Below the pieces are notes generated by a model. That model did no database searches, was not told where the DNA came from, and saw only the letters and a list, made by a program, of their open reading frames with translations. Below are positions 26,279 to 34,411 of a stretch of 64,000 nucleotides of DNA, one piece after another (within the stretch, counting starts at the first letter, position 1; every line of letters begins with the position of its first letter). Made by a program: the position numbers and the translations under genes. The stretch is from an uncultured Bacilli bacterium (GTDB taxonomy: Bacteria; Bacillota_I; Bacilli_A; RF39; UBA660): contig CANQQP010000001.1 in the NCBI GenBank assembly GCA_947626055.1, forward strand, positions 10,672 through 74,671, in the 5' to 3' direction.

Positions 26279-27472
26279 ATGGCAATAATTAATAAACTTG
26301 ATCACTTTGGTAGAGGAATAATTTTTGATGAAAAAATTACCTTCGTTAATTATGCTTTACCTTCCGAAGAGATAGATTATCAAATTATTAAAAAAAGCAA
26401 AAAGTATAATCTTGCCCAAATAACTAATTTAAAAACCAAAAGTGCCGATCGCGTAGATGTGCCTTGTCCTTATTTTTTTAAGTGTGGAGGTTGTGCTTTA
26501 GAACATTTAAAATACTCTAGAACTCTCGAGTTTAAAAAAGAAAAAGTGGAAGAAATTCTTAATAAATATGCGAAAATTAAAAGTAATATAAATGTTATTG
26601 AAAATCCTCATCCTTATAATTATCGAAATAAATTATCTTTAAAGATTAAAAATGGTAAACTAGGTTTTTATGAAACAAAAAGTCATAAATTGGTAGAAAT
26701 TACGCAATGTTTATTAGCTCAAGAAAGTATTAATCAAATAATTAAGGACATTTCTTACTTTCATTTAAAAAATGCCGATATAACTTTTAGAACGAATTAC
26801 AATAATGAATTATTAATTATTATTCAAACTGCTGATAAAATAAATATTGATTTACCTTATTTAACTCAAAAACATAAAATAGTAGGAATCATAATAAATG
26901 ATGCTATATTTTATGGTGAAGATAAATTTATAGAAAAAGTTGCTAATAGATTATTTCAGGTTAGTTATAATTCTTTTTTTCAAATTAATCCCTATGTAAC
27001 TTCAAAAATTTTTGAGATAGTAACTGAAAATGTACAAAAGGAAAGTATTGTGGCGGACTTATATTGTGGTGTGGGAACTCTAGGAATTGTTGCTGCTCAA
27101 AAAGCTTGTCAAGTTTATGGTATTGAAATCGTACCGAATGCAATCAAAAATGCCTTGATAAATAAAAAAATGAATAAATGCTCTAATATTGAATTTTGTT
27201 TAGGGGATGCTAAAGAGGTTATTGATAAAATAAAAGCCAAGATTGATACAATTATTATCGATCCGCCTCGTAATGGGCTTAGTCAAGAGGCTTTAAGTAA
27301 TATTTTAAAAATCACTCCTAAGGATTTAATATATATTTCGTGTGATCCTATGACTTTAGCTAGGGATTTAAAAGTTTTAAAAGAGAAATATATAATAAAA
27401 AAAATATATATTGCCGATATGTTTAGTTATACTTATCATGTAGAAACTGTATGTATTTTAAGTCTAATATAA
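26279..27472 (+). CDS. 23S rRNA (uracil-C5)-methyltransferase, RlmCD/RumA family (TRAM domain plus 4Fe-4S cysteines)
   Basis: 397 aa. CPYFFKCGGC iron-sulfur cysteine cluster, SAM-binding motif DLYCGVGT, and a C-terminal ..DPPR.G motif. Confidence 0.8.
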   Translation: MAIINKLDHFGRGIIFDEKITFVNYALPSEEIDYQIIKKSKKYNLAQITNLKTKSADRVDVPCPYFFKCGGCALEHLKYSRTLEFKKEKVEEILNKYAKIKSNINVIENPHPYNYRNKLSLKIKNGKLGFYETKSHKLVEITQCLLAQESINQIIKDISYFHLKNADITFRTNYNNELLIIIQTADKINIDLPYLTQKHKIVGIIINDAIFYGEDKFIEKVANRLFQVSYNSFFQINPYVTSKIFEIVTENVQKESIVADLYCGVGTLGIVAAQKACQVYGIEIVPNAIKNALINKKMNKCSNIEFCLGDAKEVIDKIKAKIDTIIIDPPRNGLSQEALSNILKITPKDLIYISCDPMTLARDLKVLKEKYIIKKIYIADMFSYTYHVETVCILSLI

Positions 27473-27500
27473 ACTTTTATAATGGGATTAAAGTAGAGTA

Positions 27501-27527
27501 GAGAATTTTAAAAATAATTCTTTTTTT
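27501..27527 (+). terminator. Intrinsic terminator after the methyltransferase gene
   Basis: Stem gaatt/aattc with an AT loop, followed by T7. Confidence 0.55.
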
Positions 27528-27594
27528 AATAATAAATGATTTATATTTAGTTAAAAAAATATATGAAAACAAAGTAAAGGAGGAAATTATTTTA

Positions 27595-28613
27595 ATGCAT
27601 AATTTAATTAATAAAGATGTTTATATCGATGATTTTTCTAAAATTGTCGAAATGATTGAAACTAGAAGAGATAATGCTTATAGAAAAGTAAATGAAGAGC
27701 TTATCGCCTTATATTGGGATGTAGGATGTTTTGTCAGTGAAAAAGTTCAAAGTAATAAATGGGGTAGCAAAGTGGTTGATAATTTAGCAATGTTTATAAA
27801 AGATAAATATCCTACTTTAAAAGGATTTAATAGACGTGGGATTTATAGAATGAAACAATTTTACGAAACATATAAAGATGATGAAATTGTGTCACCACTA
27901 GTGACACAATTAAGTGGACTAATAACTTATTAATTTTATCAGGAACCAAAACAAGAGAAGAAAGACAATTTTATATTAAAATGGCTATAAAAAACAATTA
28001 TTCAAAAATTGAATTGGATAGACAACTTTCAAGTGGTTATTATGAAAGGTATATGCTATCTGATAGAACAATAAAACCATCAGTAAATAAAACAATTGAT
28101 GAAGGTGATTATCCAAATACTAAATTGTTAGATGTATATTCATTAGAATTTTTAAATTTACCGAATGAATATTCGGAAGTTGATTTAAGAAAAGCTATTA
28201 TAAATAATTTAAAAAATTTTATTTTAGAAATTGGCAAGTCTTTTACATTTGTTGGGGAAGAATATAGAATCCAAGTTGGTAATGAAGATTTTTTTATTGA
28301 TCTTTTATTTTATAATCGCGAATTAACTTGTTTAGTAGCTTTTGAATTAAAAGTTGGCAAATTTAAACCTGAATATGTTTCCAAAATGGATTTTTATTTA
28401 GAAGCTTTAGATAAACAAGAAAAAAAATATAATGAAAATCCAAGTGTTGGAATAATATTATGCGCGGATAAAGATGAAAAAGTGGTAGAATATGCCATGA
28501 GCAGAACAATGTCTCCCACAATGGTTGCGGAATATAAATTAAAATTAATAGACAAAAAAATATTAGAAAATAAATTAAAAGAAATTTCCGTTTTTATAGA
28601 AAAAGACAAATAA
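27595..28613 (+). pseudogene. DUF1016/YhcG-family PD-(D/E)XK nuclease gene disrupted by a -1 frameshift near 27912-27916
   Basis: The N-terminal part (27595-27913) and the C-terminal part (frame 0, open from 27885) together reconstruct ..QLS[W]TNNLLILSGTKTREERQFYIKMAIKNNYS.. typical of DUF1016. The sequence reads agtggact where agtTggact would keep the frame. The C-terminal part has a PD-(D/E)XK-like region, FIDLLFYNRELTCLVAFELK. Confidence 0.65.
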
Positions 28614-28648
28614 TATTTTAAATTAGAATAATGGAATAGGAGGTAAGT

Positions 28649-29353
28649 ATGACTATAGAAGAGGAAATATTTAAAAGAGCCAAGATTGATTTTGCTAAAT
28701 TATGTAAATATGGTTTTAAAAAGAATAATTTATTATATAAATATTCTCAAAATATCATGCATAATACTTTTCGAATTGATATTGAAATAAATAACGCAGG
28801 AATAGTCAAAGGGAAAATTTTTGATTTATCTTTTGAAGATGAATATACTAATTTTCGAATAGAAGATAATAGAGGATCATTCCAAAATAAAGTTAGGGAC
28901 GAATTTATAAATTTATTGCAAGATATTAAAGATAAATGTTCTACAAGGGAAGTATTTATATATGAGCAGACTAATAGAATTGCTAAAGCAATTACGCAAA
29001 AATATGGTGATGAGCCTGAATTTGAATGGGAAAAGTTTCCAGGATATGCAACTTTTAAAAATAATAATAAATGGTATAGTATTATAATGAATCTTAATTT
29101 TAATAAACTAGGGGAGAATTCTTCTAAAAAAGTAGAAATAATTAATTTAAAGCTAGATCCAACTACTATAGAAAATTTCTTAAAGCAAAAAGGATTTTAC
29201 CCTGCTTATCATATGAATAAAAAACATTGGCTTACGATTATCTTAAATGATACCATCTCGGATGCAAAAATAATGCAGTTAATTGCCCAAAGCTATAGCT
29301 ATACTATATCTAAAAAAATAAAGCAAAATAGTAAAAAATGTGATAGACTATAG
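28649..29353 (+). CDS. MmcQ/YjbR-family protein with an N-terminal extension
   Basis: The C-terminal half contains PGYATFKNNNKWYSII...GFYPAYHMNKKHWLTIIL, matching the YjbR/MmcQ signature (HMNKKHW). Confidence 0.6.
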   Translation: MTIEEEIFKRAKIDFAKLCKYGFKKNNLLYKYSQNIMHNTFRIDIEINNAGIVKGKIFDLSFEDEYTNFRIEDNRGSFQNKVRDEFINLLQDIKDKCSTREVFIYEQTNRIAKAITQKYGDEPEFEWEKFPGYATFKNNNKWYSIIMNLNFNKLGENSSKKVEIINLKLDPTTIENFLKQKGFYPAYHMNKKHWLTIILNDTISDAKIMQLIAQSYSYTISKKIKQNSKKCDRL

Positions 29354-29371
29354 GGAAAAGGAGAGATTTAC

Positions 29372-30187
29372 ATGAAAAAAGTTATTAGTATATTTTTAAC
29401 AATTATAATGTTTTTTACAGCCTTAGACATTATCGCAACTTATTCTATTCGAAATATTTTATCAAGTGATGCGATGCAAGAGTTAATTAAAGAAACGAAT
29501 GTTACGGAAATAATTGAAGAAGTTAAAGAAGATGGAAAGTTAGATTTTGTTTATCAAGAAGCCGAAAAATACGGAGTTAGTGAAGATAAAGTTGATGAAG
29601 TTGTAGCGTCCGAAGAGGCCAAAGAATATTATGGTACTATCTTACAAAAATATTTGGATGGAACTGACATTACCTTAGATGAAGACACGCAAAAATTACT
29701 AGATATTGCTACTGAAAAATATAATATAGATTTAACAGAAGATCAAAAAGAAGAATTAAAAGAAAATATTAATGAGGTAGTTATTGTTAATAAAAAAGAA
29801 AATGTTAATAATGAGTTAGCTAATAATATAAACAAATATACAAATTTTGTAAAAAACAATGCTTTATATATTATTGCTATTGTTAGTTTAATTGTGCAAA
29901 TATTATTAATTGGTATTCTAAATATTAAAAAAAGAAATTTTATGAGTTATTTTGCAGTTTGCCTATTATTACTTGCTATATTCATGGGTTTAGGTACATT
30001 TGGTTTGCAAATAGTTTTAGCCATTTTAAATCAAAGTGTAAATATTAATTTAGTCAAATTATTTGGCAGCATTCTTCAAAAAGGATATATATTTAGTCTA
30101 GTACTATTTGTGTTAATGATTATTTTCTTCGTCATAAATAAAAAAATTAAAATAAATGGGTCAATGGAGAAGGAAAATGAACATTAA
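29372..30187 (+). CDS. Hypothetical membrane protein (1 N-terminal plus 3 C-terminal TM helices, acidic central region)
   Basis: ORF with RBS AAAGGAGAG. No known motif. Confidence 0.5.
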   Translation: MKKVISIFLTIIMFFTALDIIATYSIRNILSSDAMQELIKETNVTEIIEEVKEDGKLDFVYQEAEKYGVSEDKVDEVVASEEAKEYYGTILQKYLDGTDITLDEDTQKLLDIATEKYNIDLTEDQKEELKENINEVVIVNKKENVNNELANNINKYTNFVKNNALYIIAIVSLIVQILLIGILNIKKRNFMSYFAVCLLLLAIFMGLGTFGLQIVLAILNQSVNINLVKLFGSILQKGYIFSLVLFVLMIIFFVINKKIKINGSMEKENEH

Positions 30188-30527
30188 AAATTACTATGTA
30201 AGTGATATAGAGGCTTTTAAAGATAAATTGCTAAAAGAGTTAATTGCCCATAATATTTCTTTTGTTGTAGTAGATAATGAAATTCATTATGCAAACAATA
30301 TAATAAGATTTAATAACAAGACTATTAAAGTAAATAATCAAAAAGAGCAAAGAAAACAATATCGGAATGCTCTAATTAAATTATTTTTAAAAGAAGAAAC
30401 TGCTGATAAAAAAGATTATGATATTCTTAAAAATAATACAAAATTTTCAAAGGCAGATAATTATCATAAATTTAAAAATTATTATAAAATCCAACCGCAA
30501 ATGCGTAGTTTAAAAAAATATCATTAA
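30177..30527 (+). CDS. Hypothetical small basic protein
   Basis: ORF overlapping the upstream gene by 11 nt (start MNIKNYY). Lys-rich. Confidence 0.4.
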   Translation: MNIKNYYVSDIEAFKDKLLKELIAHNISFVVVDNEIHYANNIIRFNNKTIKVNNQKEQRKQYRNALIKLFLKEETADKKDYDILKNNTKFSKADNYHKFKNYYKIQPQMRSLKKYH

Positions 30528-30574
30528 GGTAATTAGGCCATAATGGTTATATAAAAATATGAAATGCATATATA

Positions 30575-30603
30575 TTGACATTATATATTAATTTATCTAT
30601 AAT
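30575..30603 (+). promoter_or_regulatory. Perfect consensus sigma-A promoter (TTGACA-17-TATAAT) for the paralog array
   Basis: TTGACA at 30575-30580, a 17-nt spacer, TATAAT at 30598-30603. Confidence 0.55.
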
Positions 30604-30629
30604 AAAAGCCTTTAGAAAGAGGGATAAAT

Positions 30630-31250
30630 ATGCTAAGTGATGGTGATAGAAAATTATTAATTTCTAAAATAACAAAATATATAGACTTAGGCGGGTATAG
30701 AGAAAAATTGTCAGAACTTGAAGATAAGATTATAAGTTTTCAAGATGCTGATTTATCATTATATTGGATAAGAAATATTTCTCCTGATAGGGCGAAGGAT
30801 CATGTAGATATCATATCCAATACTCAAAACCCTGAAAAGATGTGGTTATTATTATTTAATGGTAAAATGGGAAAGAATCATATGTATATTCTGGCTAAAA
30901 ATATAATGAAAGCCAATAATGAAACTTATATTGCTAAATTATTGGATAAGAGGATAGCGAGAAAATTAAAAATGAATGGGTCAGTAATTGAGTGGTTATC
31001 TACTTATGGTAGCAAAGAGGTAATTTATCAAACTCTTATGGAACCTATAGAACTTGAATATATTTACCAAAAAAAATTAATATTGGCAATATATTCAAAA
31101 TTAACGAAAGAAGAAATATTTAGGTTAAAAGCAAAAATAGGTGAAACATCTTCCGTTTTAGATGATATAGAGCATGAGCTACAAAAGCAACAAGCTTATG
31201 AGGAAGTAATAACTTTTGTTAACACTCTCGTCCCAATAAAAGTTAATTAG
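30630..31250 (+). CDS. Hypothetical protein, paralog A of a three-member tandem family
   Basis: 206 aa. Shares the N-terminal MLS..RK.L motif and the core DA.LSLYW..N..P....DH..V with the two downstream paralogs. Confidence 0.6.
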   Translation: MLSDGDRKLLISKITKYIDLGGYREKLSELEDKIISFQDADLSLYWIRNISPDRAKDHVDIISNTQNPEKMWLLLFNGKMGKNHMYILAKNIMKANNETYIAKLLDKRIARKLKMNGSVIEWLSTYGSKEVIYQTLMEPIELEYIYQKKLILAIYSKLTKEEIFRLKAKIGETSSVLDDIEHELQKQQAYEEVITFVNTLVPIKVN

Positions 31251-31455
31251 CGTTTTAAAACAGGGGTTATTCCCTTTTTTTCGTTGTTTAATAATTCAAG
31301 ATATTGATTGGCTTTATTTCCCCAAATAATTTGCACTTTACCGCAATTTTGACATATTCTTTTATAATAAGTTTGCGGACCAATGATTTTTTCACCCCAT
31401 AAAATAATTTCATCATAGTAGCCATCACTAGGAAGAGTATTAGCATAAACATATA
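31247..31455 (-). pseudogene. Start-less gene remnant (69 codons, CxxC-containing C-terminal fragment)
   Basis: The minus-strand frame is open from a TAG to a TAA (LYVYANTLPSDGYYDEIILWGEKIIGPQTYYKRICQNCGKVQIIWGNK..). There is no ATG and only an internal GTG. It overlaps the stop of paralog A. Confidence 0.3.
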
Positions 31456-31551
31456 ACTAGAAAAAATATATAATTGAAAACAAATTTTTAGTTTTTGTTG
31501 CTTTTACTAATTATTTCTTTTATAATAAAGACTCATAGAAATGAGGAAAAT

Positions 31552-32175
31552 ATGTTAAGCTCTGAAAATAGAAAAGTTTTAGTTGAATCTTTAGATAAGT
31601 TTTTAAATAATAAAAATAATCATGGGGAAAAGTTATTAAGCATTGAAAAAAATATAGTAGCTCTTAATGATGCTGGATTATCTATCTATTTTGCTGAAAA
31701 TGTTCCTAATGCTAATATTAAATCTCATTTGGAAGTAGTTATAAAAAGCAATGACTCCCAAAGTATGTCGTATTTTCGTAGTATGCTTACTATAATGGGA
31801 TATGACGAATTGAAATCTGATTTAGAAAGAGCTATTTTGACTACCGGCAATGAAGATGCTATTAGAGAATTGTGCTATTCGTTTAATTGTGATATAAACG
31901 ATTCATTAAGACAGGAAGCACGTGAGTGGTTATTTTAAAATGGCAGTAAGGAGTGCTTAATATATTATGTACTGATCGAAATTAATAAGGAGGGAAATAT
32001 CATTTTTATAAAGAGAATTTTAGAAAAATTATATCCTCAATTAACTGATGCAGAGCGCAATATATTAAGACAAAAATATCCTAATTATATAAAAAGCATA
32101 GAACGTAATTATCAGGAGACTGTTGAGTTAGAAAAATTAACTCAATTGGTAAGAGAGTTAAATTCTCATAATTAA
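31552..32175 (+). pseudogene. Paralog B of the tandem family, interrupted by an in-frame TAA at 31936-31938
   Basis: The upstream ORF (128 aa, MLSSENRKVL..) ends ..AREWLF*. The same frame then continues stop-free for 78 codons, NGSKECLIYYVL... This aligns with paralog A ..EWLSTYGSKEVIYQTL... The combined length of 207 aa is close to paralog A's 206 aa. Confidence 0.55.
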
Positions 32176-32200
32176 TAATAAAAAAAGGAGATAAATTGTA

Positions 32201-32758
32201 ATGAAAAAAGAAACTGAAAAAAACCCTACAATTACCAATATTATTGAACGTATTGAAGAATATTTAAAACAAGAATTTTCTAGAAACCTTTTATTAAAAT
32301 TAGAACCCCAAATTTTGAAAATACAAAATGCAGAATTATCTTTATGGTTTGTTGAAAATGTTCCGAACTCTAAAATTTCAGATCATCAAGCCATCGTTAT
32401 GCAATATGGAAGCTTTGCTGATCAAAAAGATTTTGCTTCTTATGTTCCTGGCGCTGATATATCGCTAATTGGTAAGAACATTGCAGAAAAATATAAAGAT
32501 AGCGATACAGATTATATTTATGATTTTTTAAATGATGTTGATGTTGACGTAAAGGAAGCAATTCACTATATGGTAGAAGTATGGAATAAATTAAACGAAG
32601 AACAACGCCAAACACTTTATATAAAGTATGTTGGTGGTGTGTATGATACAATTTTTAAACAGAACTTAGCTGTCATAAAAGAAAACAAGGCTTTACAACA
32701 AGTAGATGAAATATCAGCACTTATTAGAACTTATCAAAATCAAAGTAAAAAAGCTTAA
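32201..32758 (+). CDS. Hypothetical protein, paralog C of the tandem family
   Basis: 185 aa. Core motif NAELSLWFVENVPNSKISDH shared with paralogs A and B. RBS AAAGGAG. Confidence 0.6.
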   Translation: MKKETEKNPTITNIIERIEEYLKQEFSRNLLLKLEPQILKIQNAELSLWFVENVPNSKISDHQAIVMQYGSFADQKDFASYVPGADISLIGKNIAEKYKDSDTDYIYDFLNDVDVDVKEAIHYMVEVWNKLNEEQRQTLYIKYVGGVYDTIFKQNLAVIKENKALQQVDEISALIRTYQNQSKKA

Positions 32759-32812
32759 ATACTAGTTAAATCTAGTATTTTTTGTTATAATTTTATAGAA
32801 GGATATGATAAG

Positions 32813-33745
32813 ATGAAAGATTTAAAAGTCGTATTTATGGGAACTCCTGATTTTTCTGTCCCAGTTTTAAATACTCTAATTGAAAATACTAATGTATCTT
32901 TAGTAGTTTGTCAGCCTGATAAATTAGTTGGAAGAAAACAAACTCTAATGGCACCGCCTATTAAAAAGGTTGCTTTAGAACATAATATTAAAGTATTTCA
33001 ACCTGTTAAAATCAAAGAAGATTATGAAGAGATAATTAATGAGCAACCTGATATAATAATTACTTGTGCTTACGGACAAATAATTCCTAAAAAACTTTTA
33101 GATCTACCAGGATACGGTTGTATTAATGTTCACGCTTCTTTACTGCCAAAATTAAGAGGGGGAGCACCAATTCATCATGCTTTAATAGATGGATATGAAA
33201 AAACAGGTATTACGATTATGTATATGGCTGAAGGTATGGACGATGGTGATATCATTGCCCAAGAAGAATATGTTATAAAAAAAGAGGACAATGTCGGTAT
33301 TTTACATGATACTTTAGCAAAAATGGGAGCTAAACTTTTAATAGAAACTTTGCCAATGATTATCCAAGGGACTAATAAAAGAGTAAAACAAAATCCGAAA
33401 GAGGTAACTTTTGCTTATAACATTAAAAGAGATGAGGAACATTTAGATTTTCATGATTCCTGTCAAAATATATATAATAAAGTACGCGGATTAAATCCTT
33501 GGCCGTTAGCTAATATAATTTTAGATGGAAAAGAAGTTAAAGTTTTGGAATGTGAATATAAACTCCAACAAACGCATAATATTGCGCAGGTTTGCGAACT
33601 GACAAAAGATGCTATCGGAATATCTGCTCAAGATGGTATTATTTATTTAAAAACTATAAAACCTTTTTCCAAAAAAATAATGACTGTTAAAGATTATTTA
33701 AATGGAATAAAAAAGGATGAATTATTAAATAAAGAAGTAAAGTAG
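32813..33745 (+). CDS. fmt: Methionyl-tRNA formyltransferase
   Basis: 310 aa. N-terminal VVFMGTPDFSVP, then HASLLP..RG.API and the C-terminal domain. Confidence 0.9.
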   Translation: MKDLKVVFMGTPDFSVPVLNTLIENTNVSLVVCQPDKLVGRKQTLMAPPIKKVALEHNIKVFQPVKIKEDYEEIINEQPDIIITCAYGQIIPKKLLDLPGYGCINVHASLLPKLRGGAPIHHALIDGYEKTGITIMYMAEGMDDGDIIAQEEYVIKKEDNVGILHDTLAKMGAKLLIETLPMIIQGTNKRVKQNPKEVTFAYNIKRDEEHLDFHDSCQNIYNKVRGLNPWPLANIILDGKEVKVLECEYKLQQTHNIAQVCELTKDAIGISAQDGIIYLKTIKPFSKKIMTVKDYLNGIKKDELLNKEVK

Positions 33746-33754
33746 GTGAGATAA

Positions 33755-34411
33755 ATGTTTCGTAAAAAGGAGCCTAAATATAAACAAACTAATCCTGATG
33801 ATCCTTGGATTATTAAAACTTGGCAAACACCGAGAGGACGAGCTGCTTTAAAATTAGGTATATATGGAGTTTTTATACTATTAGTTTTACTACTTATTTT
33901 CTTTAGATCTGATTTATCTCCCAAAGTATATAAAACTGTATATACTCCTTATAAGAAAGATAATAGTACGAAAATAGAAGATTTAAAAAAGAACAATTTT
34001 GCTTATAAATACACGATAACTATTAATGAAACCAAAATTTTATATTATGGTAATAAGCTTTTAAATATCGAAAGTGGCTATAAAGAAGATATTAATGGGA
34101 TAATAAAATATATTAAAGAAAATGATAAAGTTTATAAAGTTGGTCTTACGGAAAAAGAAGAAATGACTAATTTATATGAAAATCTAAATCCTAATTATTT
34201 TAGTGTAAATTATATTATGGAATTAATAGAACCTCAATTTTTAGAAAATAAAGATAATGAGCAAAATTATATTTTGGATAATGGAGTAGAGATTAGTATT
34301 AAGTCGGATAATTCTGATATTAAAAATATTATCATAAAAGATGGTGCGGCTTTATATGAATTAGAATATTCAAATATTGGTAAAGTTACCCAGAATGATA
34401 TTGAAAAGTAG
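33755..34411 (+). CDS. Hypothetical membrane-anchored protein
   Basis: 218 aa with a single N-terminal TM helix. It occupies the slot between fmt and rlmN. Confidence 0.5.
   Translation: MFRKKEPKYKQTNPDDPWIIKTWQTPRGRAALKLGIYGVFILLVLLLIFFRSDLSPKVYKTVYTPYKKDNSTKIEDLKKNNFAYKYTITINETKILYYGNKLLNIESGYKEDINGIIKYIKENDKVYKVGLTEKEEMTNLYENLNPNYFSVNYIMELIEPQFLENKDNEQNYILDNGVEISIKSDNSDIKNIIIKDGAALYELEYSNIGKVTQNDIEK

Follow-up and report, generated by a model that had tools for sequence, protein, structure and literature searches.

Genes A, B and C at the array locus

We analysed a 64-kb stretch of DNA from an uncultured Bacilli bacterium (hereafter the window; 28.8% G+C), in which three open reading frames (ORFs) lie in tandem on the forward strand at 30630-32758, each with a Shine-Dalgarno-like sequence. 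Gene A (30630..31250) encodes a protein of 206 aa; gene B, which begins at 31552, is interrupted by a stop codon; and gene C (32201..32758), the hypervariable member of the array, encodes 185 aa and starts 25 nt past the true stop of B. As judged from sequence, their products belong to a 28-residue helical-repeat family that lacks any curated model, and the genes themselves occupy a hypervariable, copy-number-polymorphic site in the core chromosome.

Pairwise BLASTP comparisons (A/B, E 9e-11; B/C, E 3e-9; A/C, E 3e-7) place the similarity of the three products far past chance, and A, B and C are therefore paralogs, as a first-pass annotation of this DNA had proposed. The core that it described as common to all three is likewise real in the alignment, at residues ~35-67, and its description of the proteins as all beginning MLS..RK.L is accurate for A and B, C beginning MKKETEKN instead. 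It had also described the C-terminal halves as divergent, which is true of C: this protein significantly matches A and B over the N-terminal 55-70 residues only, and its C-terminal half has no significant similarity to either (hhalign E 0.03-0.04). The description does not extend to A and B, which are homologous end to end once B is read through its stop codon (hhalign E 9e-23 over the full length, E 3e-9 for the C-terminal halves alone).

The reading frame of B contains a TAA at 31936-31938 and continues to 32175, giving 207 sense codons when read through: a 5' part of 128 codons from the ATG to the in-frame TAA (31552..31938, + strand) and a 3' part of 78 codons plus stop, with no start codon of its own (31939..32175, + strand). 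An intact ortholog of 207 aa (P0006) aligns with read-through B throughout and has GAA (Glu) at the position of the stop, and the copy of B at the syntenic locus L021 likewise encodes Glu at the codon of the window's TAA. The piece downstream of the TAA aligns with residues 130-207 of P0006 and by itself matches the family profile (E 4e-11), and the DNA flanking the TAA is homologous to the matching segment of A (repeat D2). The short length of B therefore follows from the in-frame TAA and, on the strength of these alignments, B is pseudogenised in this strain by a nonsense codon.

A 28-residue helical-repeat family

The motif shared by the three proteins is the first and best-preserved unit of a 28-residue helix-turn-helix tandem repeat, whose consensus, drawn from 296 in-register units, is DPEYIYKFAKDVKGADIKA[LH]EDAIIxSG. 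It is thus one unit of a tandem repeat and not the N-terminal domain for which it had been taken, and the associated picture of a conserved N-terminal module joined to variable C-terminal modules has to be given up, since A and B are homologous throughout and B is short from its stop. A hidden Markov model (HMM) of the unit finds one canonical unit in B (DAGLSIYFAENVPNANIKSHLEVVIKSN, residues 40-67; 31669..31752, + strand; i-E 2.5e-12) and two in C, starting at residues 43 and 71 (residues 43-70 and 71-98; 32327..32494, + strand; i-E 1.6e-7 and 4e-7). The corresponding unit of A is degenerate (DADLSLYWIRNISPDRAKDHVDIISNTQ, residues 39-66; 30744..30827, + strand) and was located by alignment with the units of B and C; the unit HMM alone gives it no score, and A is joined to the family through its full-length hhalign alignment with B and through the family profile, which scores it at E 2e-72. 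Gene A is built of N-terminal cap helices, one degenerate canonical unit, more degenerate helical hairpins and a long C-terminal helix; gene C of cap helices, two canonical units, degenerate units and a 36-residue C-terminal helix. Small members in several lineages have a common layout of N-terminal cap helices, first unit, and acidic or helical tail. A search of the window with the family profile found no member beyond A, B and C.

Structural models of A and C, made by AlphaFold2 with family alignments, are highly confident (C: pLDDT 92.2, pTM 0.80, ten helices, the last spanning residues 149-184; A: pLDDT 91.5, pTM 0.80, thirteen helices, the last spanning residues 174-200). Both proteins are, in these models, alpha-solenoids of helical hairpins ending in a long helix. 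Foldseek searches with the two models gave no significant neighbour (all E>0.06), the non-significant ones being designed helical repeats, TPR, Sel1 and ARM proteins, with weak matches to PUF and PPR-type proteins too. The structural check that the first-pass annotation had recommended, AlphaFold followed by Foldseek, thus returned confident helical solenoids and no significant structural relative. The family accordingly combines a consensus unit with a 28-residue spacing and stacked helical hairpins. It resembles the HEAT_PBS (PBS-lyase/E-Z, PF03130), TPR, Sel1, ARM and ankyrin repeats in having tandem helix-turn-helix units (~27-34 residues) stacked as a solenoid, with conserved hydrophobic core positions, a variable surface and no catalytic motif; it differs from them in its own consensus, its strict 28-residue period, the lack of any significant Pfam repeat match and the lack of a solved-structure relative by sequence. 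A, B and C are small, hydrophilic, soluble, mostly acidic, all-alpha proteins (pI ~5.1-5.3 for B and C and 8.5 for A; family median 5.7) in which inspection by eye found no signal peptide or transmembrane segment; as their N-termini are hydrophilic, we rejected a signal or secretion role.

The motif had been described as falling outside known families, and this is borne out by searches of curated resources. None of A, B and C has a match above cut-off in Pfam, NCBIfam, PHROGs, PADLOC-DB 2.0 or PDB sequences, none of the Pfam Imm families matches any of them, and every relative carrying a source name is called 'hypothetical protein'. Canonical multi-unit members have no significant match to a Pfam repeat model, the best scores (HEAT_PBS, E 0.089, for P0108; Ank_2, E 0.0063, for P0011) both lying below the gathering scores; in PHROGs they find weak matches to small families of unknown function. 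Four profile searches of PDB sequences (profiles A1, A7, A8 and A4) returned nothing significant, and literature searches returned nothing on this 28-residue repeat. Pfam domains accompany the repeat in a few of the 146 multi-unit members surveyed (PcfJ-like in 3, OHA in 2, UPF0738 in 2, and SH3b, AAA_5 and SpvD in 1 each). PcfJ-like proteins (PF14284) are found in conjugative elements and phages, and the likeness is that a few long members fuse the repeats to a PcfJ-like domain or adjoin one; A, B and C differ in having no PcfJ domain, which only 3 of the 146 surveyed members possess.

In three relatives (P0014, P0022 and P0105) the repeat units match the N-terminal 30 residues of the TrpR-related YerC/YecD model TIGR02531 below threshold: against a cut-off of 42 bits, P0014 sums to 49 bits with no single stretch passing, and P0022 and P0105 reach 24-26 bits. 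The same model has no match to A, B or C, and an L-type repeat profile matches PDB entry 3kor, a 'possible Trp repressor', weakly (E 0.76). A TrpR-like relationship was rejected because the matches are sub-threshold, and the resemblance to YerC/YecD is probably that of a helix-turn-helix look-alike.

The extent of the family emerges only with sensitive searches. A word-indexed search of 5.8 billion proteins yielded just 10 close relatives, of which 3 come from the window itself; when 1.84 billion cluster representatives were searched exhaustively with an HMM, 581 of them scored E<=1e-3 and 142 reached E<=1e-10. Most of the 581 contain 2-12 separate matched stretches each, the step between successive motif matches in multi-unit members is predominantly 28 residues, and 195 of the 199 proteins examined have 1-16 units. 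In another gut lineage (loci L015-L019), the near-identical proteins P0184, P0171 and P0158 (127, 155 and 183 aa) differ by exact 28-residue units, a pattern that indicates unit gain and loss by in-frame recombination. They lie between dnaE/HD and rnc-smc, where small members stand singly in chromosomal lineages other than that of the window.

The family is found in low-GC gut bacteria and on some phage contigs, often as tandem gene arrays. A metagenome scan yielded 78 loci, mostly low in G+C (0.22-0.29), many on contigs labelled human gut metagenome; at 20 of them there are two or more family ORFs, with a maximum of 11 inside 10 kb. That maximum belongs to contig Ga0256845_1000111 (72.6 kb; L093, L094 and L104), which carries at least 24 family ORFs, and further arrays of 3-5 are found at L079, L100, L026 and L027, some on IMG/VR viral contigs. 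Recurrent neighbours across the metagenome loci (ABC1 kinase, GatB, AspRS, a GNAT acetyltransferase and a NADAR protein) are conserved within lineages only. Among 2.9 million viral contigs, family members are present at 9 IMG/VR loci, where they form arrays of 3-4, lie in one case beside a primase-helicase and in another beside a portal gene, and include fusions to PcfJ or have it as a neighbour; the phage-like contigs that bear family members are 36-266 kb long. Expanded multigene families of repeat proteins, such as those with ankyrin repeats, exist in large viruses and host-associated bacteria, and the present family is like them in its large tandem expansions (11 in 10 kb; at least 24 on the 72-kb contig) and in its occurrence on phage-like contigs; the members in the window differ in having another repeat type, in being very short (1-2 canonical units) and in being chromosomal.

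Variation between strains and the genomic setting

We compared the array across seven distinct syntenic loci, the window included, taken from metagenome-assembled genomes of uncultured Bacilli bacterium (sample labels 'Lapin') and from related assemblies of ENA and Logan. In close strains the flanks are 95-97% identical to the window, yet the content of the array differs: the window has A, B (with its nonsense codon) and C, L007 has A, B and C, L021 has B and C, L013 has a frameshifted B and a C with no start codon, and L011 has C. Of two more distant loci, L005 has A and C, and L014 has A and a 3' remnant of C. The A cassette, which takes in the promoter (30529-31243), varies as a clean insertion-deletion and is missing from L011, L013 and L021; its protein is 100% identical in L007 and 54-58% identical to the two distant copies. 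The B and C proteins are 59-72% identical between strains, where the flanking proteins are 94-100% identical. At the nucleotide level, identity to close strains in the first 100-nt bins over B and C is 60-87%; a single 100-nt bin farther along C rises to 92-93% for L021 and L013, and from fmt onward identity is mostly 95-100%.

Rates of change, obtained as Nei-Gojobori estimates, set the array apart from its surroundings. In the flanking genes dS is ~0.01-0.23 (mostly 0.05-0.13), dN is at most ~0.03 and dN/dS is mostly 0.02-0.16 (0.33 for fmt against L007), compared with dS ~0.43, dN ~0.15 and dN/dS ~0.35 for B, and dS 0.24-0.41, dN 0.19-0.29 and dN/dS 0.54-0.96 for C, in which dS is raised 2-5 fold over the flanks. 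Identity among the six C alleles is 55-73%, except for one pair at 94%, and the alleles are mosaics, with common blocks in different combinations. The C allele of the distant locus L005 is 71% identical to those of L021 and L013, compared with 59-62% for the window's allele, and its greater closeness to them means that the allele tree disagrees with the flanks. Sliding pN/pS among C alleles ranges from 0.3 to 1.25. Within the canonical units of C, 11 of 26 core columns are variable as against 25 of 30 non-core columns (Fisher p 0.002), and the tail DEISxLIRTYQN is invariant among C alleles; this sparing of core columns, together with the invariant tail, indicates that the fold is maintained while the surface changes.

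The array lies at a fixed chromosomal site upstream of fmt, between core genes. Gene order runs through gerA genes, a tRNA methyltransferase, YjbR, a 271-aa membrane protein, a 116-aa basic protein and the array to fmt, followed by a 218-aa protein, rlmN, a PP2C phosphatase, a PASTA kinase, rsgA and rpe. Neighbours were checked with Pfam in the window and with precomputed Pfam lists, covering ~8 kb either side, at the six other syntenic loci. The families seen were GerA, methyltransferase, YjbR, fmt, rlmN, PP2C, PASTA kinase, rsgA and rpe, with a GH25 lysozyme in L005; toxin, LXG/WXG100, Rhs, secretion and known defence genes were all absent from this range, so the cognate toxin or secretion genes for which the first-pass annotation had advised a search are lacking there.

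A sigma-70-type promoter with a perfect consensus (TTGACA-17-TATAAT, 12/12; 30575..30603, + strand) lies upstream of A only. It had been credited with driving all three genes; the promoter itself is as described, and it can serve A alone, since a hairpin and the remnant of a convergent gene come after A and B is preceded by an upstream region of its own. The hairpin, followed by a T-run, is a candidate terminator shared with the convergent gene (31262..31276, + strand; fold -9.3 kcal/mol, z -2.7). Between C and fmt, a second candidate terminator is formed by an AT-rich hairpin with a U-run (32757..32783, + strand; fold -8.7 kcal/mol, z -1.9), which our terminator scan missed because it requires 3 G-C pairs. 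Rfam has no non-coding RNA match over 29000-34000. The convergent gene between A and B survives as a 3' remnant of 67 codons (31247..31450, - strand) of a gene for an 81-aa Cys-rich protein (CKH...CQNC), a deletion of ~89 bp having removed the first 14 codons, the start codon and the upstream region to leave a pseudogene. It is intact at L007:8618-8863 (-) and L011:2887-3132 (-), with 97-98% nucleotide conservation among close strains, and an 81-aa gene is called there in the distant L005 too.

Further variation was observed around the array. Directly upstream of it in every close strain (window 30156/30177-30527) is the gene for a lysine-rich basic protein of 116-123 aa, a homolog of which is also found upstream of A at the two distant loci, in L005 with a GH25 lysozyme gene intervening. 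That gene (L005:6790-7962) stands directly upstream of A, in place of the YjbR and membrane-protein genes. The basic protein evolves fast (35-42% identity where Fmt is at 84-85%), and the 123-aa ORF belongs to no family, its match to Imm26 (E 0.03) lying below cut-off. A partnership between this basic protein and the acidic repeat proteins is conceivable. A strain-variable insertion at 27460-28634, which the window shares with L021 and which L007, L011 and L013 lack, contains a gene for a YhcG-type PDDEXK nuclease (27981-28613, Pfam E 2e-53) and a 112-aa ORF (27595-27933). The 218-aa protein between fmt and rlmN (33755-34411), for which no Pfam family is recorded, is conserved at every syntenic locus, though at only 64% identity in the distant L005; many Firmicutes have rsmB at this point in the gene order.

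Interpretation of the array

We favour, at somewhat better than even odds (a probability of roughly 0.55), the explanation that A, B and C serve as protein-binding scaffolds that are dispensable, diversify rapidly and may take part in phage-host conflict. Each would be a non-enzymatic binding scaffold whose variable surface recognises a protein partner, a role suggested by analogy with all characterised alpha-solenoids and by the lack of a catalytic signature. The paralogs would then be partly redundant variants that differ in specificity, their diversity sustained by selection of a fluctuating or diversifying sort, the most plausible source of which is phage or mobile-element proteins, and the long conserved C-terminal helix may have a role in oligomerisation or docking. 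In its variable copy content, mosaic alleles and high dN/dS, the evolution of the locus resembles that of conflict-related genes, a resemblance that the strain comparison supports. Several features point to selection of a fluctuating or diversifying, conflict-like kind: the alleles are mosaic and their relationships discordant, dS and dN are both raised, copies are often lost, and arrays form throughout the family. Because a few members are borne by phages, phage-host interaction is the leading candidate.

A number of observations weigh against this explanation. Whole-gene dN/dS is never clearly >1 and genes have been disrupted by nonsense, frameshift and deletion, so that relaxed constraint could account for much of what is seen; since the loci are metagenome assemblies, some of the disruptions could in turn be assembly errors. 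No binding partner was identified and no neighbour is conserved across the lineages examined, the clustering of 247 neighbour ORFs from the 78 metagenome loci having returned only lineage-specific housekeeping synteny. PADLOC-DB 2.0 leaves A, B, C and two upstream ORFs unmatched at E<=1. The link to phages is thin, resting on 9 loci among 2.9 million viral contigs, and tblastn with P0051 as its only query gave no match among 50,697 phage records and 72,556 plasmid records.

Decay under relaxed constraint is the main rival, in which the genes would be functionless, lineage-specific ORFs in an array drifting to loss, their diversity neutral. The disruptions fit it well: a nonsense codon in the window's B, a frameshifted B and startless C in L013, C reduced to a 3' remnant in L014, every copy absent from some strain, and dN/dS of 0.35-0.96. 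We nevertheless consider it decidedly unlikely as a full account. None of the seven loci is without a copy, and six of them, L013 being the exception, have one whose reading frame is intact; substitutions spare repeat-core positions (p 0.002), the C tail is invariant, the AlphaFold models are highly confident and the family persists in hundreds of clusters. A dS raised 2-5 fold and an allele tree in conflict with the flanks would not arise from relaxed selection alone. Relaxed constraint thus accounts for the pseudogenes but not for the contrast between core and surface, the elevation of dS or the survival of one copy or more at every locus.

The first-pass annotation had likened the locus to an immunity-protein or polymorphic-effector array, and part of that comparison stands: like the immunity-gene arrays of polymorphic-toxin loci, which neutralise competitors' toxins and may include orphan immunities, this one comprises tandem, divergent paralogs encoding small cytoplasmic proteins, with strain-variable copy content and mosaic, hypervariable alleles that recombine and evolve fast, and helical-repeat immunity families exist. 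The comparison fails at the toxin, LXG/WXG100, Rhs or secretion partner, which is absent within ~8 kb at any syntenic locus, at the Imm families, none of which matches A, B or C, and at the core-chromosome site; relatives elsewhere, moreover, are single, between dnaE/HD and rnc-smc or beside gatB, aspS or an ABC1 kinase gene, and members also occur near phage replication and head genes, all of which makes an immunity role improbable. Position would suggest accessory factors of the fmt-rlmN-PP2C phosphatase-PASTA kinase-rsgA operon, such as translation-start or Ser/Thr-signalling adaptors, as the array is directly upstream of fmt in every related genome and C, if present, adjoins it. A role tied to fmt is based on position alone, a hairpin with a U-run stands between C and fmt, identity between strains is 59-72% for the array proteins where it is 94-100% for the operon proteins, every copy is dispensable and members in other lineages lie beside unrelated genes; we regard this as highly improbable. 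Less probable still are modular nucleic-acid-binding proteins of the PPR, PUF, TALE or mTERF kind, despite the tandem helical repeats of fixed length, the non-significant Foldseek matches to PUF and PPR-type proteins and the multiple sub-threshold matches of units to the TrpR-related model: no match is significant, A, B and C have only 1-2 canonical units, and nucleic-acid binding was rejected because the proteins are acidic (pI ~5.1-5.3 for B and C, family median 5.7).

To return to the protein-binding scaffolds that we favour, a bolder version of their role seems to us possible, if unlikely: the 28-residue family as a whole might be an unrecognised, fast-diversifying recognition module in phage-bacterium conflict, with chromosomal arrays binding phage proteins and phage arrays countering them. 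A-B-C might then form a strain-specific repertoire of binders that neutralises or senses phage proteins, and the large arrays on phage contigs a counter-repertoire. What is new here is a helical-repeat family, of the known alpha-solenoid kind, with unusually fast local evolution. If our reading holds, it would constitute a new alpha-helical repeat family of at least 581 clusters with no counterpart in Pfam, NCBIfam or PDB, built on a very regular 28-residue unit, with a tendency for its genes to expand into arrays and for the number of units to change; such a short, regular unit, with a confident predicted fold, may also be of interest to repeat-protein engineers. The array forms a hypervariable island within an otherwise 95-100% conserved core operon region, and, with 1-3 genes of ~200 codons, would offer a small and concrete system in which to ask what diversifies cytoplasmic repeat proteins in uncultured gut Bacilli.

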